A DNA stretch of 48,875 nucleotides from Phycisphaerae bacterium (GTDB lineage: Bacteria > Planctomycetota > Phycisphaerae > UBA1845), in the NCBI GenBank assembly GCA_029260255.1, contig JAJDDR010000046.1, forward strand, positions 1 to 48,875, in the 5' to 3' direction. The position numbers and the translations under genes are program-made. Position 1 is the stretch's first letter. Each line of letters begins with the position of its first letter. Under the pieces are notes generated by a model. The model did no database searches and had not been told where the DNA came from. It saw nothing but the letters and a program-made list of their open reading frames with translations. Positions 1 to 38,654 of the stretch are shown here, in pieces.

Positions 1-312
1 CACCTCGCTCGACAGTGCCGACAACTCGGCACTACCGGAATGGGTGCGCTTCTCCGGTGCCACAGGGGTTGCTCCTTCCGCCACGGTGGCTCGCCCTGAG
101 CTACGTCGTACGCTAGCGTCGCGCTGTGGCACTCGCAAGCAAGAAACGTCACTTGTAGCCGTTATTTCTACCATGTCGCGTCCGCCGCAGCCGAGCACGG
201 CACCTTCTCGGTAGGTGCGGGTGTGCAGGATGACGCCGTCGGGACCCAACTCGCGTTTGACCTTGGCCAACGCCTCGCCCATCGTTTTGGCACGGAACTT
301 CCTAGGATTCAT
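1..312 (-). CDS. flhF: Flagellar biosynthesis GTPase FlhF, N-terminal 104 codons only (gene runs off the left edge of the window)
   Basis: Absent from the ORF track because it is open to the window edge. My reverse-strand translation from ATG at 312 reads MNPRKFRAKTMGEALAKVKRELGPDGVILHTRTYREGAVLGCGG..., with no stop down to nt 1. This is the typical FlhF N-terminal B-domain signature. The start overlaps the flhA stop (302-304) by 11 nt, and the position after flhA fits the conserved order. Confidence 0.75.
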   Translation of the reverse strand, partial: MNPRKFRAKTMGEALAKVKRELGPDGVILHTRTYREGAVLGCGGRDMVEITATSDVSCLRVPQRDASVRRSSGRATVAEGATPVAPEKRTHSGSAELSALSSEV

Positions 313-3743: not shown

Positions 3744-4529
3744 TCATCCGGCACCGGTCGTTACGACCACGTCGCGAAACATCACGATCGTGTCGACGAC
3801 GGCTTCGTTGATCAGATCGAACGCGTAGGGCAGCGCCAGCGCCGCCATCGTCAGACCGGCCAGCACGCGCACCGCAAACCCCACGGTCAAGACGTTGAGC
3901 TGCGGGATGGTCCGCGACAGCAACCCCATCGTCAGCGACGCCATGAAAAGCGTGATCACCGCCGGGGCGGCCATTCTCATGGCCAGCTTGAACGCGCTGG
4001 TCAGCAATGTTACGAGAAGCGGGAGGAACGACTCGCTCATGCGGAACCCCGCGGGGGGAATCGTGCGGTAGGTGTCGAGCAGGGCGGCCATCATGGCGCG
4101 ATGCCCGCCGATGGCGAGGAAGACCATCAGGGTGACGAGAAAGTACACCTGGCCTACGATGGTGGTCTGGTCGTCCATCATGGGATTGATGACCCGCCCC
4201 AGTGCGATGCCCGCCTGTTGGGCGATGATCATGCCGGCGAGTCGCGTTCCGAGAAAGACGAACCCGACACTCATTCCCAGAATCAGCCCGATCAACAACT
4301 CGCCGAACACGCTGACCAGAACCTCGCCGAGCGGCAGGTTCAGCGGCACGCGCGGCAGGACGATCGGCGCGATCATCAGCGACACCACGAACGCAAACCC
4401 CGCCTTGACACGGGCGGGAACACCGGTGCTGCTGAAAATGGGCGCGGTCAGCGTCAGTCCGCCCACGCGGAAGAGGATGAGCAGAAACGGCGGCAGCAGC
4501 AGCGTGATGTCGACGGCGCGTGTGGGCAT
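3744..4529 (-). CDS. fliR: Flagellar export apparatus protein FliR
   Basis: 261-aa polytopic membrane protein located between fliQ and flhB. The hydrophobic profile and position are typical of FliR. Confidence 0.88.
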   Translation of the reverse strand: MPTRAVDITLLLPPFLLILFRVGGLTLTAPIFSSTGVPARVKAGFAFVVSLMIAPIVLPRVPLNLPLGEVLVSVFGELLIGLILGMSVGFVFLGTRLAGMIIAQQAGIALGRVINPMMDDQTTIVGQVYFLVTLMVFLAIGGHRAMMAALLDTYRTIPPAGFRMSESFLPLLVTLLTSAFKLAMRMAAPAVITLFMASLTMGLLSRTIPQLNVLTVGFAVRVLAGLTMAALALPYAFDLINEAVVDTIVMFRDVVVTTGAG

Positions 4530-4599
4530 TGCGGACAGTTACCTCGCGACGGAGCGTTTCGATCCCGATCGGACTCCCCTGGGAGATCGCGCTTCGGAA

Positions 4600-4857
4600 T
4601 CAGGGAAGCGAGCCGAACATCTCCTGTGCATAATTCAGCATGCGGTTGGCAATCCACGGGATGAAGTAGGTGGCCGCGACAACCATGGCCGCGATCTTGG
4701 GCACGAAGGTCAGCGTCTGCTCCTGGAGTTGGGTGACGGACTGGAAGACCGAGATCACGAGTCCGACGGCCATTCCAATGAGCAGGATGGGCGCGGACGT
4801 CGAGAGCGCCATGAAGAACGCCTCACGTCCAATGTCCAGTGCGGAGCCGAGTTCCAT
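4600..4857 (-). CDS. fliQ: Flagellar export apparatus protein FliQ
   Basis: 85-aa two-TM protein, MELGSALDIGREAFFMALSTSAPILLIGMAVGLVISVFQSVTQLQEQTLTFVPK..., located between fliP and fliR. Confidence 0.92.
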   Translation of the reverse strand: MELGSALDIGREAFFMALSTSAPILLIGMAVGLVISVFQSVTQLQEQTLTFVPKIAAMVVAATYFIPWIANRMLNYAQEMFGSLP

Positions 4858-4894
4858 CGCAGTGTCCTCCTTCGGTCGCCAGCGCCGTGGCGCT

Positions 4895-5743
4895 TCAGAC
4901 GACGACCATGCTGTCGAAACTGTACAACAACGTTTGCACGATCAGATGCCATCCGTCCGCAAGGACGAACAGGAGTATCTTGAACGGCAGACTGATGAGC
5001 ACGGGCGGTAACATCATCATGCCCATCGAAATCAGGATCGAGGCGATCACCATGTCGATCACGAGGAACGGCAGGTAGATCCGAAAGCCCATGACGAACG
5101 CGGTCTTCAACTCGCTGAGGATGAACGCCGGCACGAGCGCGGTTGTGGAAACGTCTCCGAGCACGAGCGGTTGGTCGGCCGCCACGGACTTGCCCGTCGC
5201 GTACTCCTGAAAGAGGTAGATGTCCTCGTGGTTGTTGCTCCGATCGATCTGCCGGAACATGAACTGTCGCATGTGCCCGACGGCCGTTTCGGTTGCGACG
5301 CGTTGGGACATCTTGTTGCTGAGATAGGGCTGGAGTGCGTCGGCGTTGATACGGCTCCACGTCGGTCCCATGACGAGAATGGTCATGAAGAGCGAAAGCC
5401 CGAGCAGAACCTGCCCGGGCGGGAGTTGCGGCGTGGCCATCGCTTGCCTGAGTAGGGATAGCACCACGAGGATGCGCGTGAAGCACGTCGTCATCACCAG
5501 GATGGACGGCACGAGGGTGAGCACCGTCATCAGGACGAGGATCTGGAGCGTCACGCTCACGCCCTCGGCGTCTTTGGCCGAAGGGAGCACGCCGCGCAGG
5601 TCGGGGACGTTGTAGGGATTGTCGAAGGACGCGGTCGACGACGCGTCCTGCCCGTGCGCGACCCCGGGCGCGCAGAGGGCGGCAACGAGCGCCGCGCGAG
5701 CGGTCCACCGCAAGAGGCACTTTGAGCATCCATGCTCGGTCAA
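4895..5743 (-). CDS. fliP: Flagellar export apparatus protein FliP
   Basis: 282 aa. Has an N-terminal signal-like segment, then conserved FliP blocks (LTLVPSILVMTTCFTRILVVLSLLRQAMATPQLPPGQVLLGLSLFMT; FRIYLPFLVIDMVIASILISMGMMMLPP). Confidence 0.95.
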   Translation of the reverse strand: MTEHGCSKCLLRWTARAALVAALCAPGVAHGQDASSTASFDNPYNVPDLRGVLPSAKDAEGVSVTLQILVLMTVLTLVPSILVMTTCFTRILVVLSLLRQAMATPQLPPGQVLLGLSLFMTILVMGPTWSRINADALQPYLSNKMSQRVATETAVGHMRQFMFRQIDRSNNHEDIYLFQEYATGKSVAADQPLVLGDVSTTALVPAFILSELKTAFVMGFRIYLPFLVIDMVIASILISMGMMMLPPVLISLPFKILLFVLADGWHLIVQTLLYSFDSMVVV

Positions 5744-5786: not shown

Positions 5787-6617
5787 CTATGCGACACCGG
5801 AAAAGGTGTCAGGATGATCCTTGGGTGAGCGCCCCGTGCGTCCTGCGGGCGAATCGCTCCCGGCCCCTCTTGATCCGGAGGTGCGACTGAACGATCTGAG
5901 CGTGCTCAACAATCCCTTGAGGTCCTCCCGCGTGCGCGCCACCTGGCGGGCGGAGTGCGCAGTCGGCGAAAGCGCCGACTCCACGTGCGCGGTCATCTCC
6001 CCTTGTTCGCCGGCGAGAACGTCGTCGAACGGCAACACGCGCTTCCTGCCAACGTCGCGGCGTAGCTCGGACCTGAGCGCGGCGGACTCCTCGGCGTCTT
6101 CGACGAGGTGAAGCGTCGTCATTCGATCCGCGGTAATGCCGACAAAGGCGAATCGGCGGCCCATCTGAACGAGTGCAATGCTCTGTTTGGGTGAGACGGC
6201 CACCCGGCTGAGAACACTCAAGGCACGCGCACCAGGCGCCTGCGCCGACCCGATGAAACGTCGCGCGAAGAACGCCGCGACCATGACCAGAGCCAGAACC
6301 ACAACCAGCGACATCAGTCCGCTGCGATACCATGGGCGTTCGTTCCGGTCCGCGTTCGCGCTGAATCTGCGGATCGGTATCTGCTTCGTCTCGAACTCCG
6401 GCGTCTGCCGATCGGTCTCCACGGCATCGACACCGACAGGTTCCTCGCCTGCGATCGGTTCGATCTGCAAAGCACCGTTCGGCGACGTATCCAAGACCGG
6501 TCCACCCGGAGGCTCGTCGCCCGCGGCGGCGGTTACGGCGAAGCACGCGGCGGCGAGCACCGTCAGGCATGCCCGAAGCGCGCAGCGGTAAATGTCCGAG
6601 TCAGGCAACTGCGACAT
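5787..6617 (-). CDS. fliO: FliO/FliZ-like flagellar export protein
   Basis: The track ORF (5787-6785) would overlap fliN. The internal ATG at 6617 (MSQLPDSDIY...) gives 277 aa with a signal-like N-terminus, one TM (LMSLVVVLALVMVAAFFARRF) and a FliO-type block SVLSRVAVSPKQSIALVQMGRRFAFVGITADRMTTLHLVED. Sits between fliN and fliP. The start is uncertain. Confidence 0.6.
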   Translation of the reverse strand: MSQLPDSDIYRCALRACLTVLAAACFAVTAAAGDEPPGGPVLDTSPNGALQIEPIAGEEPVGVDAVETDRQTPEFETKQIPIRRFSANADRNERPWYRSGLMSLVVVLALVMVAAFFARRFIGSAQAPGARALSVLSRVAVSPKQSIALVQMGRRFAFVGITADRMTTLHLVEDAEESAALRSELRRDVGRKRVLPFDDVLAGEQGEMTAHVESALSPTAHSARQVARTREDLKGLLSTLRSFSRTSGSRGAGSDSPAGRTGRSPKDHPDTFSGVA

Positions 6618-7614
6618 TTCGCGGTCCCGTAACGATTTCACTGATGCGAACGCAGAAGTTGTCACTGAGGACAAGGACTTCACCCCGCGCAACGAGCCGC
6701 CCGTTGACGACCACGTCGACAGGGTCCCCCGCGAGGTTGTCGAGTTCAACGACGCTGCCTTCTGCGAGCTTGAGGACATCCTCAATGTACATGTGCGTGC
6801 GCCCCAGCTCGATCTGCACGCTCAGGTTGACGTCACGAAGAATGGAGATATCGCGCGAGTCATCGCCGGTGGCGCCTGCCGCAAAATCGGGAAGGTCAAC
6901 CGCCGTGGGTGCGGGTACTTCGGGGGCCGGGGCGGCTGCGTCTTCACCGGCGGCTTCGGCGAGGGCGGCGGCCATCGCGGCGGCCTCTTCGTCAAACGGC
7001 CGCCCCGCGGAATCGAGTCGCGTGTCCGGCGCGGCTTCCGCCGTGGTCCCTGCCAGGGCTGCGTCGATGTCGGCTTGAGATAACTCCCCATCACCGGCCG
7101 CTGGCGCCGGTGCTTCTGCCGCCTCCGACGCACCCTGCAACGCCGCGTCGATGTCGGCCTGGCTCAACTCGCCGGTGTCACCGGCGGCGGGGGGCGTCGT
7201 GTTCGCCGCGTCCGGGGACACCGCGTTGAGCAACGCGTCTATGTCGCTTTGATCGAAAGCACCGGAGTCCGCCGCGGGTTCGGCAGCGTCGGGCAGGGGC
7301 GGTGACGGAGCGTCATCCGGTAGGGCGTTCATCGCCGCGTCGATGTCGGCTTGGTTGAGAACCCCTGACGCGACCGGCTGTTCGCCCGATGGCGTGTCCT
7401 CGCCACCTGTGGAGTCCTGCGAATCCACGTTCCCAGCGTCAGGACCGCCGACATCGGCACCACCCGCGTCCGGCGAATCGGACTGCGCGTTCATCAGCGC
7501 ATCGATCTCGTCCTGGGGAGACGATGCTGCCGAGTCCGGCGCGCCCGCGGGCGGGTCTTCCGCCGGACCCTGCCCGGGCTCCTGCGGGTCCTGGTTCTGT
7601 GGATCGTCGGTCAT
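6601..7614 (-). CDS. fliN: Flagellar motor switch protein FliN with a ~240-aa acidic N-terminal extension carrying five LSQxDIDAL-type repeats
   Basis: The C-terminal ~85 aa form a FliN/SpoA domain (DISILRDVNLSVQIELGRTHMYIEDVLKLAEGSVVELDNLAGDPVDVVVNGRLVARGEVLVLSDNFCVRISEIV). The N-terminal extension is D/E/P/A-rich with five recurrences of xxQxDIDAxxNA. Confidence 0.9.
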   Translation of the reverse strand: MTDDPQNQDPQEPGQGPAEDPPAGAPDSAASSPQDEIDALMNAQSDSPDAGGADVGGPDAGNVDSQDSTGGEDTPSGEQPVASGVLNQADIDAAMNALPDDAPSPPLPDAAEPAADSGAFDQSDIDALLNAVSPDAANTTPPAAGDTGELSQADIDAALQGASEAAEAPAPAAGDGELSQADIDAALAGTTAEAAPDTRLDSAGRPFDEEAAAMAAALAEAAGEDAAAPAPEVPAPTAVDLPDFAAGATGDDSRDISILRDVNLSVQIELGRTHMYIEDVLKLAEGSVVELDNLAGDPVDVVVNGRLVARGEVLVLSDNFCVRISEIVTGPRNVAVA

Positions 7615-7653
7615 ACGCCTGCTCTATCGACGTGAAGCCGCATCCAAAACCAC

Positions 7654-8187
7654 TCAAAGGTTGGTGCGTGACTGCAGCATTTTTGAGATGAGAACCTTCG
7701 AAATCAGCTCCCGTCCGCCCAGCAAGTTGTTCAGTTCCAACTGAAGCTGGCGCTTGATCAACTCCAGCGCCGGATCGTTCAGATGCGCGGGGTCGGCCGA
7801 TCGAATCACCTCCTGCACGCGGTCTTTAATCGACGCCTCTCGCGCCTTCACGAAACGGTCGACCGTCTCAACGTCTTCCGTCGCTACCAGCGCTGCTAAC
7901 TGCAGGTGATAGACGAACAGCTTGCCCTCTTTTCGGTTGAAGGCATCGACCGAGCAGAGCTCGACCTCCGTCTCCTTGTCCAGATTGAAGGGATCGCTTG
8001 TCGCCAGATCGTCTTCGGCCGCGAGCGTGGACTCCGGGGGATCCGCCACGAAACTCATGACCGCGAAGATCAACGCGCCTTCGCCGAGCATGAGCCCGCC
8101 GACGATGGCGAGCGTCTTGAAACGCCCCTTCTTTTGGCCGGCGCTTTCGTTGAGTTCCTCATTGCGGTCGGGTTCATTCTTCGCCAT
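7654..8187 (-). CDS. fliL: Flagellar basal-body-associated protein FliL
   Basis: 177 aa with a single N-terminal TM (LAIVGGLMLGEGALIFAVMSFV) and a FliL-type C-domain (LFVYHLQLAALVATEDVE...IKDRVQEVIRSADPAHLNDP...LKRQLQLELNNLLG). Located downstream of motB. Confidence 0.85.
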   Translation of the reverse strand: MAKNEPDRNEELNESAGQKKGRFKTLAIVGGLMLGEGALIFAVMSFVADPPESTLAAEDDLATSDPFNLDKETEVELCSVDAFNRKEGKLFVYHLQLAALVATEDVETVDRFVKAREASIKDRVQEVIRSADPAHLNDPALELIKRQLQLELNNLLGGRELISKVLISKMLQSRTNL

Positions 8188-13965: not shown

Positions 13966-14634
13966 TTACGTTCCCTTTCTCGGGTCAGCCTTGGTGTCGG
14001 ACTTCACGTCCACCAGGAGTTTCATGACATTCGTCATCTTCACCTGTTGGTTCTCGCTCTTTGCGGCTTCGACGATCTTCTTGACCTTTCTGGTGTTGAG
14101 ATCGAAGAGGATGCGCGCCGCGTCAACGTCGCTCATGGCCATGATCTGCTTCAACGCTACCTTGGGCGAGAGCTGCGAGATGAGCTCGACCTGCTTGGCA
14201 TACCCGGCGACCGACTCGCGCTTCGTTCGCGCTTCCCGCTCGGTTTTGTCGCGCTCGACAAGCTTCTCGAACTCCTCGCGTCGGCGATCGACATCGAGCC
14301 GCGCGGCGTTGATCAGTTTGAGACGCTGCTCGATCTGCGTTCGATAGCGCTCCGCGTTGCGCCAGGCGACCTCATCCTTGACCCGCTGGTCGTCGGGCGA
14401 AACGCCCGCCCGCGCCGCCCTTTCGGCAGCGCCGGACTCGGAGTCGGACGTCGCGTCCGCAGTAGCTTCACCGCCGGAATCACCCTCGCCCTTCAAAACC
14501 GCCAGGGCGGCACGAGCGCGCTCGGCATCGAGCTTGCCAGTGGCTACGAGGTATCCTACGCCGCCGCCGATCGCCAGCAGATGCACGAGCGCCAACGCCG
14601 CGACCAAGTTGTACGTCTTGCGAATCGCGCCCAT
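13966..14634 (-). CDS. Flagellar operon protein with MgtE_N-like domain (YlxF/FlbB/MotE-like)
   Basis: 222 aa with an N-terminal TM, a coiled-coil, and a C-terminal block LISQLSPKVALKQIMAMSDVDAARILFDLNTRKVKKIVE that resembles the MgtE intracellular N domain. Occupies the ylxF slot between fliJ and fliK. Confidence 0.6.
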   Translation of the reverse strand: MGAIRKTYNLVAALALVHLLAIGGGVGYLVATGKLDAERARAALAVLKGEGDSGGEATADATSDSESGAAERAARAGVSPDDQRVKDEVAWRNAERYRTQIEQRLKLINAARLDVDRRREEFEKLVERDKTEREARTKRESVAGYAKQVELISQLSPKVALKQIMAMSDVDAARILFDLNTRKVKKIVEAAKSENQQVKMTNVMKLLVDVKSDTKADPRKGT

Positions 14635-17259: not shown

Positions 17260-18297
17260 TTAGACGATCATCTCCTTCTCGCCGCCCCGACCGCTGATGA
17301 TGATCTCCCCGGCGTCCTCCAGGCGTCGAACCACGTCCACGATCTTCTGTTGCGCACCCTCGACGTCGGCAACGCGGACCGGGCCCATGTACTCCATATC
17401 TTCCTTGATCAACTGTGCCGCACGCTCGGACATGTTCTTGAAGATCTTGTCGCGAAGCTCCGGCGTGGCAGTCTTCAGAGCCAGCGACAGCTCGTCGTTT
17501 TCGACTTCCTTCAGCACCGACTGGATGCCCTTGTCGTTCACCAGCATGATGTCCTCGAAGATGAACATCAGACGGCGAATCTGCTCGACAAGGTCCGGGT
17601 CCTCGTCCTCGAGACCTTCCAGGATGCTCTTCTCCGTCGACCGGTCTGCGAGGTTGAGCATCTCGGCCACCGATTCGACACCGCCCACCGTTCGGAGGCT
17701 CTGCGACATGATGCCCGAGAGCCTGAGTTCCAGACCTTGCTCGACCTCCCTGATTACGTCGGGGTTGGTCTGATCCATGTTGGCGATGCGGCTGACGACC
17801 TCCAACTGCTTCGCCTGCGGCAAACCGGCCAGGATCGCGCTCCCTTTGTTCGGCTGCAGATGCGCCAGGATCAGGGCAATGGTCTGCGGATGCTCGTCCT
17901 GGATGAAGGTCAGCAGATTGTCGCCGTCGGTGCGGTGCAGGAAGGCGAAGGGCTGTTTGTAGACTTCCCCCTCGATAATCTGGAGGATGCGCGTGGCCTC
18001 GTCCGCGTTGAGGGCCTTCTGCAAGATCATCCGCGCGTACCCGACGCCGCCGTGCTCCATATGGTGGGCGGCCATCGCCAGGCTGTAGAATTCTTCGATG
18101 ATCCGGCTGGTGGTGTCCGGATCGATGGTCTCCAGGCTGGCGATCTCACGGGTCAGGTGCTCGACCAGTTCCGATTCGAGGTGGCCCATGATCTTCGCCG
18201 AGGCTTCGGCTCCGATCGTCACCAGGAGCATGGCCGCCTTTCTCAATCCGGAGAGTCCCGAACCGGCTGAGGCAGTCGGTGTCCGTCCCTGTTCCAA
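17260..18297 (-). CDS. fliG: Flagellar motor switch protein FliG
   Basis: 345 aa with conserved FliG blocks (GLRKAAMLLVTIGAEASAKIM; EDPDLVEQIRRLMFIFEDI; ALKTATPELRDKIFKNMSERAAQLIKEDME). Confidence 0.96.
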   Translation of the reverse strand: MEQGRTPTASAGSGLSGLRKAAMLLVTIGAEASAKIMGHLESELVEHLTREIASLETIDPDTTSRIIEEFYSLAMAAHHMEHGGVGYARMILQKALNADEATRILQIIEGEVYKQPFAFLHRTDGDNLLTFIQDEHPQTIALILAHLQPNKGSAILAGLPQAKQLEVVSRIANMDQTNPDVIREVEQGLELRLSGIMSQSLRTVGGVESVAEMLNLADRSTEKSILEGLEDEDPDLVEQIRRLMFIFEDIMLVNDKGIQSVLKEVENDELSLALKTATPELRDKIFKNMSERAAQLIKEDMEYMGPVRVADVEGAQQKIVDVVRRLEDAGEIIISGRGGEKEMIV

Positions 18298-18354
18298 CGT
18301 GGTCGCCTCCGTGCGTCGCGGTCATCGCCGTCTGACGCGTTGCCATTCCAATCG

Positions 18355-20022
18355 CTACTCGGTCGCCTCTGCCCATCGACGCAGCATCTTCGAGACCGCC
18401 TGCGGGTCATCGTCGATCAACTTCGTGACCTGCTCGGTCAGCTGCGCCGCGCGCAGCATGTCATCACTGAGCTCTCGCGCCTCGAGCATCGACTCCTCGG
18501 TCGGAAGAGCCCTTCCCACGGAACCGGCGTCGACGGTCAGCGGCTCTTCGCTGTCGTGATCGGCCGACGTTGCCGCCGCGATCCGCTTGCCGTACAGTTC
18601 CGCCGCATCACGCGCCGAGCGCTTGGCCATTCTCGAGAGCATTATCAGACCCATGACGGCCAGCAGTGCCAGCCCGCCCTGCGGGGCGTACTCCGACACC
18701 ACCGCCGTCCACTCCGAGCCGCCCGCCCGGCTCGCAGCCGAGGCGAGCGAACCGTCCGGCAGCAGCGTGACGGCGGGTTCGAGGTCCGGGAACAGTGACA
18801 CGGTAATGTCATCATCGAACTCGGCCATCACGATGTTCTTGACGGCCGCGAGTATCCGCTGCCTTTCCACCGCGAACCGTGCGGTGACCTCGTCGTCGGT
18901 CGGCGGCTCCTCGGTTCCCTTGATCTTGCTCAGTACACTGGACACATAGCTGTGCGGGACCCCGATGCTCGCCGTCGTGCGGCGCACGGCGAAGGGCAAC
19001 TGTTCGGTGGTCACCCGCTTGGCAAGCTGTTGGTTCTGGAATTTGGTGCTGGTCTCGTCGCTCGTATCTCGCCCGCCCTGACTCCCCGACGGAAGTGATT
19101 GCCCCACGTTCGGACCCACGCCCGTCTCGCCGGACGGTCCGCCGGTCTGCATCTCCGACGCGTTCGTGGTCTCCTCCGAGACGGCGGGCTCAGCGTAGGA
19201 GTTTTCCAACGTGCTGGTGCGCGCGGTATCCAACTGCACCGACACCGCGACGCGCACGCCGGGGATGTACGACAGTTGATCGGCGACCTTCTTGACCAGA
19301 TGGTCCTCGTGCCGCTTCTTCTCGTCGAGCTGTCCCGCCGCCATCGCATCCTCGGGGCTGGGCAACTTGAATTCACGCAACGTCGACGCGTCGATCACGG
19401 AAACGTTGTGCGGAGTCAAACCCGGTACGGCCCCCGCCACCAGCGCGGCGCACGCACGGACCGTCTCCGGACCGATCGCTCGCCCAGCCGCCATCGTCAC
19501 CGTTACCGAAGCCGTCGGCACCACGTTCGGCGCGTTCACCCGCCGCTCCGACGTATCGGTGATGAAGACGTCCGCCGACTTCACCAGACCCGACGACACG
19601 AATACCTGCGCGAGTTCGTTCTGAAGCGCTACGCGTCGCCTGAACTGGTTCTCCGCCGCCGGTCGAAACGGGGAATCGTCCTCGATCAGCCGCGCGAACG
19701 TGACACTCGTATCGGCCGGAAGCGCACCGGCACTCTGCAACGACCACAGAAGCCCGCGCCGCGCACTCGGCGAAACCAAGATGTGATCGCCGGCGATCTT
19801 GTATTCCCCCAGCGGCAGGCTCTGCTGCGCCAGCACGATCTGGTCCGCCGTCATCGGCTCTTCCAGAAGGCGAACGTAGTCGGGCTCCGCCGACCACCGC
19901 AGGAGCCAGAGAAGCGAGCCGACGATGACGACCGCGCACAGCCCGATGGCCAATCTCTGCGAGGCGGTCAGGTCCGCAAGCTGCGTGTTGATCTTGGCGA
20001 TGACTTGTTTGAATGGGTCCAT
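18355..20022 (-). CDS. fliF: Flagellar MS-ring protein FliF
   Basis: 555 aa with an N-terminal TM (LAIGLCAVVIVGSLLWLL), a YscJ/FliF periplasmic region, a second TM (GGLALLAVMGLIMLS) and a C-terminal FliG-binding tail. Confidence 0.93.
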   Translation of the reverse strand: MDPFKQVIAKINTQLADLTASQRLAIGLCAVVIVGSLLWLLRWSAEPDYVRLLEEPMTADQIVLAQQSLPLGEYKIAGDHILVSPSARRGLLWSLQSAGALPADTSVTFARLIEDDSPFRPAAENQFRRRVALQNELAQVFVSSGLVKSADVFITDTSERRVNAPNVVPTASVTVTMAAGRAIGPETVRACAALVAGAVPGLTPHNVSVIDASTLREFKLPSPEDAMAAGQLDEKKRHEDHLVKKVADQLSYIPGVRVAVSVQLDTARTSTLENSYAEPAVSEETTNASEMQTGGPSGETGVGPNVGQSLPSGSQGGRDTSDETSTKFQNQQLAKRVTTEQLPFAVRRTTASIGVPHSYVSSVLSKIKGTEEPPTDDEVTARFAVERQRILAAVKNIVMAEFDDDITVSLFPDLEPAVTLLPDGSLASAASRAGGSEWTAVVSEYAPQGGLALLAVMGLIMLSRMAKRSARDAAELYGKRIAAATSADHDSEEPLTVDAGSVGRALPTEESMLEARELSDDMLRAAQLTEQVTKLIDDDPQAVSKMLRRWAEATE

Positions 20023-21642: not shown

Positions 21643-23034
21643 TCACCCGACCGCCACCGGCATCTCCGCGTCGACCGTCGCCGCGTCCTGCTCCCGCCAT
21701 TGTTTCAATTTCAAACCCAGCGTCCGCACACCCATGCCCAGCAGCTTGGCCGTCTTGACCCGGTGCCCGTCGAACTGCTTCAGCGTCCGCTCGATCAACC
21801 GCCGTTCCATGTCCTCGAGCATCCGACCCGGACGAAGCCCGGCGGAGGGTCCCGTGTCCGCGCCCTCAGATCCCAACCACTGGTTGACATCCTCGCGGCG
21901 TATCGCGGCGCCCGTCACCGTGGCGACCGCGCGCTGGCAGATGTTCTCCAACTCGCGAATGTTCCCCGGCCAGCCATACCGGCGCAGCGGCTCCATCGCC
22001 TCGGGCTCGACCACCAGAGGCGTCCGCCCCATCTGCCTCGCCATCCGACTGAGGAAGTACTCAACCAGCATCGGAAAATCCTCGTGTCGCTCGCGCAAGG
22101 GCGGCAAGGACACCGGCAGCACGTTCAACCGGAAGAACAGGTCCGCACGAAAACGCTTCTTGGCGACCCACGCGCCCAGACTGCGGTTTGTCGTCGCGAT
22201 CACGCGGACGTCGGCACGCTGCGTTACGCTACTCCCCACACGCTCGAACTCGCCCTCCTGCAGCACACGCAGCAACTTCGCCTGCAGCGGAAGCGCCATC
22301 TCGGAAACCTCATCCAGCAAGAGCGTCCCGCCGTCGGCCAACTCAAACCGCCCGCGCCGCATCCGATCCGCGCCGGTGAACGCGCCACGCTCGTGGCCGA
22401 ACAACTCGCTCTCCAGAAGGTTGGCGGACAGTGCCGCGCAGTTGACACAGAGCATCGGGCGATCACACCGCGGAGAGCCCTCGTACACCGCCGCGGCCGC
22501 CAGCTCCTTGCCGGTGCCCGACTCGCCGGTGATCAGGACGGTCGCGTCGCTTGCGGCGTACTGATCGATCTGCTGACGGAGCCGCGCCATCTCGGGACCG
22601 TTACCGACCATGCGGCGGTCCTTGCGAAGATCGTGGAGCGACGTCCGCAACGCCTCATTCTCCGTGCGAAGGCGCTGGTGCAAAAGGGCGCGATCGACCT
22701 TGATCTCGAGACTGTCCGCCTCGAACGGCTTCTGCGCGAAATCGACCGCGCCGAGTCTCATCGCCTCCACCGCCGTCGGCACCGAACCGTAGGCCGTCAT
22801 CACGATGATCGGAACGTCGCACTTCGCCTCGCGCACCGCCCGAATCAGACCCAGCCCGTCCAGCTTCGGCATGCGCAAATCGGTAAGAACGAGATCGAAG
22901 CACTTGGCGTTGATTCGCTCCGACGCCTCCACGGGATCGGCAAACGTGGTGACCACATGGTCAGCCCGCTCCAGTGCCGCCGCGACCGAATCGCGCATCA
23001 CGGCCTGATCATCCACAACACAAACGCGCGCCAT
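21643..23034 (-). CDS. Sigma-54-dependent response regulator (NtrC/FlrC/FleR-type bEBP: receiver + AAA+ + Fis-type HTH)
   Basis: 463 aa. The receiver domain reads VVDDQ...DLVLTDLRMPKLDG. The AAA+ domain has Walker A GESGTGKE, the GAFTGA loop (ERGAFTGAD) and LLLDEV. The C-terminal HTH is TAKLLGMGVRTLGLKLKQW. Confidence 0.94.
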   Translation of the reverse strand: MARVCVVDDQAVMRDSVAAALERADHVVTTFADPVEASERINAKCFDLVLTDLRMPKLDGLGLIRAVREAKCDVPIIVMTAYGSVPTAVEAMRLGAVDFAQKPFEADSLEIKVDRALLHQRLRTENEALRTSLHDLRKDRRMVGNGPEMARLRQQIDQYAASDATVLITGESGTGKELAAAAVYEGSPRCDRPMLCVNCAALSANLLESELFGHERGAFTGADRMRRGRFELADGGTLLLDEVSEMALPLQAKLLRVLQEGEFERVGSSVTQRADVRVIATTNRSLGAWVAKKRFRADLFFRLNVLPVSLPPLRERHEDFPMLVEYFLSRMARQMGRTPLVVEPEAMEPLRRYGWPGNIRELENICQRAVATVTGAAIRREDVNQWLGSEGADTGPSAGLRPGRMLEDMERRLIERTLKQFDGHRVKTAKLLGMGVRTLGLKLKQWREQDAATVDAEMPVAVG

Positions 23035-23061
23035 CAGTGTTAAGTCCTCAGTTGTCAGTAG

Positions 23062-23943
23062 TCAGTTGTCAGTCTTCGGTTTTCTGTTTTCCCCGTTTGG
23101 CAGCCACAGCGTAAACACCGCGCCGCCCCCGTCCCGCCGGGCGACGTCCACCCTGCCCCCGTGCGCTTCGACGATGCCATGCACGATCGCCAGCCCCAGA
23201 CCGGTTCCCGAGTCCTTCGTCGTGAAGAACGGATTGAAGATGCGCTCGACGTGCTCCGCGGATACACCGGGACCGTCGTCGGCGATCTCGACCCGCGAAA
23301 AACCGTCCCCGCCGTCGTTGTGCAGCGTAATCCACACGTGACCATTTCCGCCGGCCGCGTCGATCGCATTCGACAGCACGTTCAAGAGCGCCCGCTGGGC
23401 CTGCGCCGGTTCGACGACCGCGACGACCAACGATTCCGGCACGTCCAGCGACACCGAGCAACCCCGTTCGACCCGTCGTGGTTGGAGCAACGCGACGACT
23501 TCCGCCATCATCTCATTGAGCGCGACCGGACTGCCCTGCGGGTAGTGCGGATTGGAAAACGCGAGCACGTCACTCACGACGGCATCGAGATGCCGCCCGG
23601 CCGACACGATACGCTCCGCGAGCCTGCGCGACTCCGACTGCGAATCCAACTCCCGTTCGAGCAGCGTGGCGTACAGCAGAATTCCTCCCAGCGGGTTGCG
23701 AACCTCGTGCGCAACGCCCGCCGCCATCTCGCCCAACGCCGCCAACCGCTCGCGCCGGCGCAGCTCGCGGTCCTTCTCTTCGAGTTGTTCCGTCAGCCGC
23801 CGCACCTCGTCGATCAGCACGTCGTGCGACACCTTGAGCTTCTCGGTGACCCGGTTGTAGGAGTCGATGATCCCGCCCAGTTCAACCTCCAGGCCCGTCA
23901 GCCGACCACCGTTCATCGCTCGATCCGCTATCGCCGTGTTCAT
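23062..23943 (-). CDS. Soluble histidine kinase (NtrB/FlrB/FleS-like), partner of the sigma-54 regulator
   Basis: The internal ATG at 23943 (MNTAIADRAM...) gives 293 aa with no TM segment. It has a coiled-coil, an H-box LGEMAAGVAHEVRNPL, an N-box LLNVLSNAID, and G-boxes DDGPGV and GTGLGLAIV. Its ATG overlaps the upstream gene's stop (ATGA at 23940-23943). Confidence 0.87.
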   Translation of the reverse strand: MNTAIADRAMNGGRLTGLEVELGGIIDSYNRVTEKLKVSHDVLIDEVRRLTEQLEEKDRELRRRERLAALGEMAAGVAHEVRNPLGGILLYATLLERELDSQSESRRLAERIVSAGRHLDAVVSDVLAFSNPHYPQGSPVALNEMMAEVVALLQPRRVERGCSVSLDVPESLVVAVVEPAQAQRALLNVLSNAIDAAGGNGHVWITLHNDGGDGFSRVEIADDGPGVSAEHVERIFNPFFTTKDSGTGLGLAIVHGIVEAHGGRVDVARRDGGGAVFTLWLPNGENRKPKTDN

Positions 23944-24455
23944 CGCGTCTCGTCCGTACGATCGATGTTCGCCGCCACCGGCGCGCGTTTCCCGTAAGCA
24001 CTCAGCATGGCGCCGTGCGTTGAGATGCCCCCCAACTCGCGCGCCACCTTCTTCTTGCGCACCTCCAGTCGGCGTACATCCCGACCGTCGGCGGCGATGA
24101 TGTCCCGAAGGTGCTTCTGGATCCGCCCCAGCACTTTCGCACAGTGCGAGCGCCGCTCCGGCGGGAGCTCGGCACCGAATCGTTCCCAACGCTCCGGCAG
24201 AGGTCCGATTCGTTCCGCGACGGCCGACAACCGCTCGGTCAGTTGCTGCCTCTCCGCCAGCAGCGCAAGCAGCGGTGTTGGATCCTCACCGGCCACCAGT
24301 TCACGCTGTTTGTCCACCAGCCGTGCCAGACGCTCGTACAGACCCAGCTGGTCATCCAGCAACTTCGTGAACGCATCGGCGGATAGCGCCTGTTCGGTTG
24401 CGGCACCGTTGCCGCCGTGCCCGCCCGCTCGTGGTTGTGTCGCTGATTCCGCCAT
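23940..24455 (-). CDS. FlgN-like putative flagellar chaperone (hypothetical)
   Basis: ATG at 24455 (MAESATQ...) gives a 171-aa all-helical protein (LLDDQLGLYERLARLVDKQRELVAGEDPTPLLALLAERQQLTERL...) whose heptad pattern resembles the FlgN family. Translationally coupled to the kinase. The family assignment is tentative. Confidence 0.45.
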   Translation of the reverse strand: MAESATQPRAGGHGGNGAATEQALSADAFTKLLDDQLGLYERLARLVDKQRELVAGEDPTPLLALLAERQQLTERLSAVAERIGPLPERWERFGAELPPERRSHCAKVLGRIQKHLRDIIAADGRDVRRLEVRKKKVARELGGISTHGAMLSAYGKRAPVAANIDRTDETR

Positions 24456-36665: not shown

Positions 36666-38654
36666 ATGTCACTATTCGGTGACCGCGGAATCGGAGCGAA
36701 GATCGGACTCGGGTACGGCATCGTCACCCTGGTTCTGATCGGAGCGGTGTCGACCACCTTATGGCAGGTCGATCGTACGGCTGCTGTGACCGATCGCGTG
36801 GTCGACTTGCGGGCTCCCACCGCGCAGGCCGGCTTGGGGATGCTCAACGGAATCAACCACTCGCTGGCGGCACTACGCGGTTGGATGATCTTGGGCAAGG
36901 ACAAGTTCAAGGAGGAGCGCGCCAAGGCATGGTCGGAGGAGATCGAGCCGTCGATGGCCGTCATGAAGGAGTTCGCGGCCAATTGGACGGACCCGAAGAA
37001 CATCGAGCGCCTGGCGGTGATCGAGGCGAAGCTCGGTGACTTCAAATCGTTCCAAGGGGAGATCGAGGAGATTGCCCAGACGGTCGAGAACACGCCGGCC
37101 ACGAAGATCCTGTTTGAGCAGGCCGCCCCGAAGGCGAAGATTCTGGCTACGAACATCACCAAGATGATCGATCTGGAGGCGGAGCAGGGGGCTACGCCGG
37201 AGCGAAAGGCCCTCTTGGGAATGATGGCGGACGTTCGGGGAACACTCGGCTTGGGGCTCGGGGCCATTCGCGCCTACCTGCTTTCAGGGGACGAGAGTTT
37301 CAAACAGCAGTTCGAGAAGCTCTGGACCAAGAACACCAGGCGTTTCGGCGATCTTTCCGCACAAGTGGCGCTCCTGACGCCCGAGCAGCGTGAGGCCTAC
37401 GACCTCTTCGCCAAGACCCGCAAGCAGTTCGACCCACTGCCGCACGAGATGTTCGAGATTCGCGGAAGCGATGAGTGGAACCTGGCCAACCGATGGCTCG
37501 GGACGAAGGCGGCGCCCACGGCGTTCGCCATCAAGGAGAGCCTCGATGGCATGATCGTCAGCCAGCGGCAGCTCATGACAGCCGACATGGCTGAGGGCAA
37601 GCGCCTGACCGCGTTTCTCGTCAACGTCCAGTGGATTCTGCTGATCGGAGGCGTGATCCTGTGTGCGGTGCTCGGGACGATCATCACGCGCTCGATCACG
37701 AAACCGATCAATCGAATCATCGCCGGTCTCAATGACGGTGCCGATCAGGTGAATGACGCGGCGGGGCAGGTGTCCAGTTCCAGCCAGTCACTGGCGGCAG
37801 GGGCGAGCCAGCAGGCGTCATCGCTCGAGGAGACGAGTGCCGCACTCGAGCAGATGGCAGCGATGACCCGAACGAACTCTGAGAACGCCAAGCAAGCCAA
37901 CGAGTTGACGGCACAGGCACGTACCGCCGCCGAGAGCGGTGACGGTACAATGGGCCAACTCAACGAGGCGATGACGGCGATCAACGAGGCGTCCGGGAAG
38001 ATCAGCAGTATCATCAAGGTGATCGAGGAGATCGCCTTTCAGACAAACTTGCTGGCGTTGAACGCGGCGGTCGAGGCGGCCCGCGCAGGCGAGCACGGCA
38101 AGGGTTTCGCCGTGGTGGCGGATGAGGTGCGTAACCTGGCGCAGCGCGCCGCGGAGGCGGCCAGGGAGACGACCGGTCTGATCGGCGACTCGGTGAACAA
38201 GGCAAGGGAAGGGACGAGCATCGCCGGTAAGGTCGGATCGGCACTCACCGCGATCGTGAGCGACGTCTCGAAGGTCGCCGACCTCGTGGACGGCATCACG
38301 CGGGCGAGCGAGGAGCAGGCACAAGGCGTGGATCAGGTCAATTCCGCGGTGTCGGAGATGGACAAGGTCACGCAGCAGAATGCGGCCGGCGCCGAGGAAT
38401 CGGCGTCGGTGGCGGAACAGATGTCCGCGCAGGCCTCGGTCGTCAAGAGTACCGTCGACGATCTCGCAACATTGGTCAGAGGACAGGGGGGCGCGTCCGC
38501 GGGGCACCACATCGACAAACGTCCGGCGCGGCGGCCCGCGGCGAAGCGACCGGCGGCGGCGTACGCGAATCGTCCCAAGGTTGCCGCGGGGTCCAAACCC
38601 GGTCATGCGGAGGAGTTCATGTCGCTGGACGATGGGGGTCTCTCTGAGTTCTGA
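36666..38654 (+). CDS. Methyl-accepting chemotaxis protein (4HB/CHASE3-like sensor, HAMP, MA domain)
   Basis: 662 aa with two TM segments and HAMP ([14 protein letters not shown]). The highly conserved signalling hairpin is [48 protein letters not shown] lies 12 nt upstream of the ATG. Confidence 0.95.

Follow-up and report, generated by a model that had tools for sequence, protein, structure and literature searches.

The peptide at the N-terminus of the flagellar switch protein FliM, with the consensus LSQxEIDALL, binds phosphorylated CheY (CheY-P) on its alpha4-beta5-alpha5 face, and the number and place of CheY-P molecules on the motor set the gain and cooperativity of the switch. Through the MinD-like ATPase FlhG, the EIDAL peptide of FliM in polar flagellates and of FliY in Bacillus and Geobacillus has also been shown to link C-ring assembly to flagellar number and position. 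To our knowledge, work on the capacity of the motor for CheY-P has been restricted almost entirely to E. coli and Salmonella, with one docking peptide per FliM, and we know of hardly any work on planctomycete motility at the molecular level. Here, we describe a planctomycete fliN gene whose product carries five peptides of this type. The gene is found in contig JAJDDR010000046.1 of the Phycisphaerae bacterium assembly GCA_029260255.1, and the whole contig of 48,875 nucleotides constitutes the window of this analysis. The protein is a FliN by every membership test, and its peptides are distributed along an acidic, disordered tail of about 250 aa ahead of the SpoA domain. Judged from its sequence, it is best read as a FliY-like subunit without the phosphatase domain in which the docking peptide has been multiplied.

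With the FliM N-terminal peptide (E. coli MGDSILSQAEIDALLN) the repeats share the core S-Q-x-[DE]-I-D-A-x-L, the location in a disordered segment and about two predicted helical turns, but here the peptide is found on FliN, in five copies (0-6 in relatives) and without the FliM middle domain. The FliM model TIGR01397 gave 30.6 bits against a cut-off of 219.6, through the SpoA part only, and there was no Pfam FliM match. The FliN of E. coli and Salmonella also has a disordered N-terminus, which we take to be about 50 residues long and free of the EIDAL motif, and the SpoA domain of Salmonella FliN in the C-ring cryo-EM structures is 49% identical to that of the window protein; the tail in the window, in contrast, is about 250 residues long, with five motifs and a second conserved helix. 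In E. coli the disordered N-terminus modulates binding of CheY-P to FliN_C (PMC6700473), a paper in which the motif string LSQxEIDALL also appears.

FliY of B. subtilis and T. maritima occupies the same operon place, after fliL/fliM and before fliO/fliP, and joins the same C-terminal SpoA domain to an EIDAL-type peptide on a flexible N-terminal region. It differs from FliN by its extra EIDAL and CheC-like elements (PMC12826062). The window FliN has no CheC/CheX-like domain, five peptides instead of one, and no adjacent fliM. Its best NCBIfam match is the FliY model NF005995, over the last 91 aa (112.5 bits, cut-off 218); the phosphatase domain of FliY is lacking, while the EIDAL-type peptide N-terminal to SpoA is present five times. 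Lineages differ in the composition of the C-ring and in the protein that carries the EIDAL peptide, as exemplified by FliY and FliN of Helicobacter and Campylobacter (PMC12826062); these have two separate FliN-family genes with single motifs, whereas the window has a single fliN-family gene with an array.

The peptide array of FliN

The fliN coding sequence (6601..7614, minus strand, stop codon included) encodes 337 aa, as documented by the open reading frame (ORF) list, the translation, Pfam and NCBIfam. The SpoA/FliMN_C domain at aa 259-328 (6631..6840, minus strand) scored 76.9 bits with Pfam PF01052 (E=1.2e-21, cut-off 23.8) and TIGR02480 (fliN) gave 97.7 bits, above its cut-off of 84.05; known-domain matches were limited to these residues. 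An earlier note on this DNA had recognised from the letters alone a FliN of this length with a normal C-terminal FliN/SpoA domain, and this assignment is confirmed by the ORF translation, Pfam and TIGR02480. The MxDDPQN start of the protein is shared by homologues. The N-terminal 258 aa are composed of 24% Ala (63), 15% Asp (39), 12% Pro (30) and 9% Gly (23), and are entirely devoid of Lys, His, Trp, Tyr and Cys.

The five copies, all read from the minus strand, are SPQDEIDALMNA (copy 1, aa 32-43, 7486..7521), LNQADIDAAMNA (copy 2, aa 86-97, 7324..7359), FDQSDIDALLNA (copy 3, aa 120-131, 7222..7257), LSQADIDAALQG (copy 4, aa 150-161, 7132..7167) and LSQADIDAALAG (copy 5, aa 178-189, 7048..7083). 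They have the pattern x-Q-x-[DE]-I-D-A-[AL]-[LM] in common, and copy 1 is the most FliM-like, with E at the D/E position and L-M after the A. Compared with LSQxEIDALL, all five keep Q, [DE], I, D and A, with another three or four positions either identical or conservatively replaced. When the N-terminal 258 aa were shuffled 200,000 times, the core Q-x-[DE]-I-D-A-[AL] was absent from 199,822 shuffles, occurred once in 177 and twice in 1, and was never seen three or more times, so that chance is rejected for the five copies. A six-frame scan of the whole 48.9-kb window found the core [DE][IV]D[AS][LAM][LMF] at these five places only. The recurrent peptides are all at the residues where the earlier note had placed them.

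AlphaFold2 (AF2), run with a 54-sequence alignment, predicts a disordered tail in which only the motif helices and a helix at aa 209-224 are ordered, and a beta-rich SpoA fold at aa 266-327. The helices fall exactly on four of the five motifs (88-96, 122-131, 152-162 and 180-188 for copies 2 to 5), and a helix of only 3 residues is predicted for copy 1. Means of the predicted local distance difference test (pLDDT) over 10-residue blocks are 67-83 at the motif helices, with 67 (aa 81-90) and 72 (aa 91-100) at copy 2 and 83 at both copy 3 (aa 121-130) and copy 4 (aa 151-160); the flanks fall to 38-57, and several stretches are below 50. Short elements predicted to form helices within a disordered segment of a C-ring protein correspond to the setting of a docking motif. 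Foldseek matches in the PDB were confined to the SpoA domain, in the last 70-90 residues (T. maritima FliN 1yab, 56% identity; Salmonella C-ring FliN chains, 49%; E ~1e-5). Even at E<=10, Pfam gave neither CheC nor CheX for the window FliN, in a search where the positive control, the FliY P0135, scored 74.5 bits with CheC. A hidden CheC-, CheX- or FliM-like domain in the tail was considered and is rejected by Pfam, the predicted disorder and Foldseek. The model PF28396, which was flagged on some homologues, is SepQ_C, a relative of SpoA, and does not describe the N-terminal motif.

The relationship to FliM was also seen in alignments. The E. coli FliM query was checked at 716 bits against the sequence of the Salmonella structure 8umd; in tblastn against the planctomycete loci its N-terminus (residues 2-37) was the only FliM part that aligned, at the FliN repeats, and residues 2-17 were 69% identical to copy 5. 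A two-repeat segment had Salmonella FliM residues 5-35 as its best match among PDB sequences, with E=0.49, which alone is not significant, as expected for a 10-residue motif. Together with the agreement with the LSQxEIDALL of FliM and FliY, the N-terminal alignment of E. coli FliM upholds the previous designation of the peptides as CheY-P docking-type.

Metagenome-assembled genomes of Phycisphaerae and other Planctomycetota are the source of the best homologues and of the related genome loci. The motif was found in 117 of the 120 best homologues, with 1-6 copies and a mode of 3 (one copy in 22, two in 32, three in 43, four in 12, five in 5 and six in 3), in a list that was gathered through shared 5-residue words and therefore favours motif-bearing proteins. 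The 27 genome loci, found partly through SpoA-domain patterns, are less biased, and 22 of them had at least one copy. Four Pirellulales loci had a FliN with one or two variant copies (IDQDEIEALL, LGQNDIEALF), and in some clades the N-terminus of FliN starts directly with the motif (MDQNEIDALM…), like FliM. In five genome loci (L024-L027 and similar) the disordered tail of FliN lacks the motif, and the existence of such lineages means that the motor can function without the array. The motif-less FliN of L025 is only 129 aa long, and that of L026 (9536-10249) harbours a different tandem repeat in its tail, HEPGQDAV(G/T)DATP(P/L)TS, three times.

Across 305 instances, the motif is G-[EG]-[LFVI]-S-Q-[AD]-D-I-D-A-[AL]-[LM]-x-[GA], with Q conserved in 98%, D/E in 99%, I in 95%, D in 99% and A in 97%, and with a median spacing of 30 aa. 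In the 54-sequence alignment, motif positions of copy 2 (Q88, I91), copy 4 (Q152, D154, I155, D156, A157) and copy 5 (Q180, I183, D184, A185) are at least 90% conserved, and the linkers are without consensus. The multi-copy FliN array is common across Planctomycetota and is no speciality of this genome. Full-text literature yielded no account of EIDAL motifs in several copies on FliN, although a search of open-access papers only is weak evidence, and databases call these planctomycete array proteins simply FliN. The earlier remark that no described FliN of such architecture was known to its author therefore stands as far as the literature is concerned, but not if taken to mean that the architecture is unique to this organism.

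The conservation pattern also refutes the notion that the repeats are a functionless slippage by-product, or low-complexity drift, in a D/E/P/A-rich region, a notion that we now find barely credible. In its favour, the composition of the FliN tail is biased and the copy number is variable; the alignment of orthologues proposed in the earlier note revealed 0-6 copies across the phylum. In one relative (L004, 259-565 of the locus) a 78-nt motif-plus-linker unit is repeated 3.9 times in fliN with 91% match, a 26-aa period and near-identical units. This array is a recent expansion, and it shows that copy number changes by tandem duplication of motif-plus-linker units. However, drift would not leave motif positions 95-99% conserved over 305 instances among unconserved linkers, nor would it account for variant copies that persist in another order, the Pirellulales. 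In the window, 13 of 17 residues agree between copies 4 and 5, but only 5 codons are identical; 8 codons differ synonymously, and nucleotide identity is 63%. Tandem Repeats Finder (TRF) detected in the window fliN no tandem repeat that extends over the motif array; its only row was a weak GC-rich stretch of 29 nt with a period of 12 (6957-6985), which lies outside the motifs. The codon differences and the TRF result reject a recent DNA duplication as the source of the window repeats and argue that the peptides have been kept by selection. Purifying selection thus acts on the peptide sequence of the motifs, and the linkers drift. The possibility, raised in the earlier note, that the extension would prove unconserved in close relatives has thus not materialised.

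A further conserved tail element, RLDSAGRPFDEEAAAMAAALAEAA (aa 199-224; 6943..7020, minus strand), was recognised from homologue conservation and an AF2 helix at 209-224 (pLDDT ~75). Its D[SA]xG[RK]P[FL]D core is found in 85 of the 120 homologues; in the 54-sequence alignment D201 is invariant, and G204, R205, P206, D208, A211, A212, M214, A216 and A217 are at least 90% conserved. Another motor or export protein may bind here, or the element may pack against the SpoA domain.

Candidate ligands and the fliM slot

The five peptides are very probably functional docking motifs, and we lean, by a narrow balance, towards CheY-P as the main ligand of the array. It is the default candidate because the motif is that of the CheY-P docking peptide, because a chemoreceptor gene is present in the window and because che genes have been reported for the class. 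The chemoreceptor gene (36666-38654, plus strand) encodes a methyl-accepting chemotaxis protein with 4HB_MCP and MCPsignal domains, implying that the organism has chemotaxis input. For Phycisphaerae, cheA, cheB, cheR and cheW were listed in one genome report (PMC9119077) and che genes with cheY included in another (PMC13514998). A stand-alone receiver (cheY) gene was present neither in the window nor in the retrieved planctomycete loci.

FliN is a C-ring subunit with a disordered polyanionic tail displaying five conserved, helix-prone short linear motifs of the EIDAL type. Under the CheY-P reading, each peptide would work like the N-terminal peptide of FliM or FliY, capturing CheY-P on the alpha4-beta5-alpha5 face, and the captured CheY-P would be held on a flexible tether near the FliN/FliM base of the C-ring. 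In Salmonella the stoichiometry is FliM1:FliN3 with about 34 units per ring (PMC6700473), and the same stoichiometry would here give each motor about 500 docking sites, suspended below the C-ring. CheY-P first docks on FliM_N and then acts on FliN, an interaction modulated by FliN_N (PMC6700473); the additional sites would adjoin the FliN surface that in E. coli receives CheY-P after the first docking. A higher local concentration of CheY-P and faster rebinding may then alter the sensitivity or gain of switching or provide CheY-P buffering, and the same peptides may serve the MinD-like ATPase FlhG during assembly. Altered cooperativity and a sink for CheY-P, as proposed in the earlier note, would be further candidate effects. 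Phosphatase activity is not expected since there is no CheC domain, and the FliY-type solution, a docking peptide on a FliN-family subunit, would thus exist without a phosphatase domain. With three to six docking peptides on each of about 100 copies of a rotor subunit, the stoichiometry would be changed about ten-fold, and the range of 0-6 copies among close relatives offers a natural series for the effects of valency on switching, CheY-P buffering and FlhG-dependent assembly.

Several observations weigh against this reading. The ligand is assigned by motif similarity alone, the homologue sampling through shared words favours motif carriers, and there are FliN tails without any motif (L024-L027, and 3 of the 120 homologues). 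The consensus also departs from canonical FliM_N: the residue ahead of the Ile is D instead of E in 88% of the copies, and in 55% Ala takes the place of Leu at the second position behind the invariant Asp. With Ala for Leu, one hydrophobic contact is lost, and affinity might drop or specificity shift; in the window, copies 1 and 3 retain the Leu.

FlhG is the other known ligand of the motif and was overlooked in the earlier note. In polar flagellates it binds to the N-terminus of FliM, and in B. subtilis to FliY (PMC12826062). An array that mainly docks FlhG would couple C-ring assembly to the control of flagellar number and position, and we regard this as improbable, if the most plausible of the rival explanations. 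Besides the documented binding of FlhG to FliM_N or FliY through this very motif, it is supported by the genes flhF-flhG-fliA that follow flhA in most Phycisphaerae relatives, and by proteins of other phyla with 10-20 motif copies, whose genes come immediately after flhF-flhG-fliA. For an assembly checkpoint, however, it is hard to see the need for many copies on each subunit, and L026 has flhG but a motif-less FliN. In the closest long-contig relatives, L003/L028 (~18190-19100) and L013 (~17990-18900), only a 96-aa ORF is found between flhF and fliA, yet their FliN has 3-4 copies; flhG could be located elsewhere in these genomes. When counted by locus, flhG and the motif were both present in about 10, the motif without flhG in the slot in 2, flhG without the motif in 1-2, and neither in 1, a correlation that is weak in both directions.

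The array could also be related to the fate of fliM. In the window the slot that fliM occupies in Firmicutes- and spirochaete-type operons is a 39-nt intergenic gap (7615..7653), with fliL ending at 7654 and fliN starting at 7614, which leaves no room for fliM. This spacing and the missing fliM had been noticed before, and the observation now extends to every related locus with both genes, in Phycisphaerae and Pirellulales alike, where fliN directly follows fliL; in another Pirellulales locus the genes are ordered differently and fliL is lacking. The canonical Firmicutes/spirochaete fla operon, with fliM between fliL and fliN/fliY, is thus not what the window contains. The canonical order fliL-fliM-fliY-cheY-fliO was found in the Firmicutes-type metagenome loci L082, L084, L088 and L107, each with one EIDAL peptide on FliM and one on FliY.

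FliM was searched for in the window, up to 41 kb upstream of fliN, and in 28 related planctomycete loci, as far as fliA and dapF downstream, by tblastn with 14 FliMs (E. coli and 13 diverse ones) and by a hidden Markov model (HMM) of 13 middle domains. No FliM middle domain (PF02154) was found among the 2,330 ORFs of the window and these 28 loci; the best HMM hit had E=1.5, and the tblastn matches were SpoA-to-SpoA and N-peptide only. In a metagenome search with a FliM alignment, none of the best 80 FliM loci looked planctomycete, as judged by neighbour identity and not by taxonomic assignment. Their flagellar neighbours were about 40-55% identical to the window proteins, with two FlhA/FliG fragments at 65-71%, and in most of them fliM adjoins fliN/fliY.

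It is quite unlikely, in our estimation, that the array compensates for a FliM that is missing or has been relocated without its docking peptide, which would leave FliN as the primary or only CheY-P receptor. The absence of fliM from the slot in every related locus with fliL and fliN, the absence of the middle domain from all loci searched and the FliM-like start of FliN in some clades would agree with such a role. On the other hand, fliG in the window (17260..18297, minus strand; Pfam FliG_N/M/C) keeps the EHPQ motif (…IQDEHPQTIAL…), which contacts the GGXG motif of FliM (PMC6700473), and fliM is in the gene lists, from automated annotation, of two Phycisphaerae genome papers (PMC9119077, PMC13514998). 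Given the EHPQ motif and these lists, a location of fliM elsewhere in the genome is most likely. Furthermore, motif-less FliN lineages exist, FliM and FliY of Firmicutes both carry the peptide, and in a Firmicutes-type cluster (L114, below) a motif-bearing FliM is encoded together with a FliY that has three internal copies, which favours an accessory, valency-tuning role over strict compensation.

A partner other than CheY-P or FlhG, or a structural role in an acidic tail, for example fold-back on the SpoA domain, recruitment of the export apparatus or formation of a polyanionic brush, would render the likeness to the CheY-docking peptide superficial. The two departures from canonical FliM_N are in line with this explanation, as is the array protein P0140 (Acidobacteria), which is without flagellar context. 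The second PDB match of the repeat segment was a polyketide-synthase docking-domain construct, 2n5d (GEPSQADLDALLS); this match is probably coincidental but shows that amphipathic acidic helices of this kind recur in unrelated docking systems. We consider the explanation unlikely, since the best and only flagellar PDB match is FliM_N, five of the six array proteins with examined neighbourhoods are encoded in flagellar clusters (P0121, P0122, P0131, P0125 and P0146), and a disordered tail on a C-ring subunit is exactly the situation of FliM and FliY.

Arrays on other flagellar proteins

A phmmer search with the tail alone (aa 1-258) in 1.84 billion representative proteins gave 43 matches at E<=0.001, mostly planctomycete FliNs. 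Four other proteins, P0121, P0122, P0127 and P0131, have about 10-20 copies of [IV]SQxDID[RSAQ]LL, one transmembrane helix and a C-terminal domain. They were grouped by their similar C-terminal sequences, and P0122 and P0131 also by identical gene neighbourhoods; a C-terminal FliL match in Pfam was obtained for P0121 and P0127 only and was weak and below threshold, while P0122 and P0131 had no Pfam match. The genes of P0121 (L109 8001-10406), P0122 (L110 7001-8554) and P0131 (L111 3420-5147), all from non-planctomycete bacteria, are each located immediately after flhA-flhF-flhG-fliA and before fliK. As far as could be found, this FliL-like family of array-bearing membrane proteins is undescribed.

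The FliY P0146/P0135 (CheC and SpoA domains; L114 6001-7692), found in many samples, contains three internal GKLDQSAIDALLNGGG copies in the inter-domain linker and no N-terminal copy. The same locus encodes a canonical FliM (3844-4995) with its own VLSQSQIDELL N-terminus, and cheY lies between FliM and FliY. P0125 (Thermodesulfobacteriota; L113 2448-4496) combines an LDQxDIDxL array with a transmembrane helix and bacterial Ig domains and adjoins two flgO genes, and P0123 and P0141 have similar arrays together with a transmembrane helix and TPR repeats.

The presence of arrays on several proteins of the flagellar base indicates that the peptide has been multiplied several times, and arrays of the same peptide on flagellum-associated proteins of other phyla may point to a more general, undescribed design principle. 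Speculatively, the EIDAL-type peptide might be a portable multivalent address tag for the flagellar base, multiplied independently on unrelated proteins near the motor and found on Planctomycetota FliN (up to 6 copies), in the FliY linker (3), on FliL-like membrane proteins (10-20) and on the flgO neighbour; a polyvalent layer around the rotor would then concentrate CheY-P and/or FlhG, and FliN would possibly be the main CheY-P receptor in Planctomycetota, whose fliM has left the operon and might encode a FliM without the peptide.

The flagellar operon and its surroundings

The window has a GC content of 63-65%, and within its first 21.5 kb the minus strand carries a single long flagellar operon. 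Its gene order is flgB, flgC, fliE, fliF, fliG, fliH, fliI, fliJ, a ylxF-like ORF, fliK, flgD and flgE, followed by flbD, motA, motB, fliL, fliN, fliO, fliP, fliQ, fliR, flhB, flhA and the first codons of flhF, and as a whole it is of the Firmicutes/spirochaete type. The order fliL-fliN-fliO-fliP-fliQ-fliR-flhB-flhA is shared by the window and the 20 related loci whose contigs span the region. The fliL gene (7654..8187, minus strand; Pfam FliL 25.3 bits, cut-off 24.6) lies directly upstream of fliN wherever a related locus has it. Downstream, the start of fliO (5787..6617, minus strand; Pfam FliO 43.9 bits, TIGR03500 58.2 bits) overlaps the stop of fliN by 17 nt (6601-6617). Given the 39-nt gap to fliL and the 17-nt overlap with fliO, fliN is an integral member of the operon and probably translationally coupled. 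The conserved operon, the fliO overlap and the strongly conserved SpoA domain further establish that this copy is the FliN of the operon and not a stray paralogue, and speak against the non-expressed paralogue that the earlier note had envisaged. At the contig end, the beginning of flhF (157..309, minus strand) was recognised by tblastn with the FlhF of L006 (51% identity, E=2e-9).

Between fliJ and fliK, a 222-aa ORF (13966-14634, minus strand) had only a weak MgtE_N match in Pfam and is kept at the same place in all related loci with 25-45% identity; its position is presumably that of ylxF in the B. subtilis fla/che operon. One related locus, L007 (JANQQE010000011.1, 892 kb), is labelled 'Alphaproteobacteria bacterium', yet it has a Phycisphaerae-type operon and a three-motif FliN with a layout nearly identical to that of L008 and L010, and the bin is therefore probably mislabelled. 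Directly upstream of flgB-flgC-fliE, the region 21643-24189 (minus strand) encodes a sigma-54-dependent response regulator (receiver, AAA+ and HTH_8) and a histidine kinase, which look like a flagellar regulator pair of the FlrB/FlrC type.

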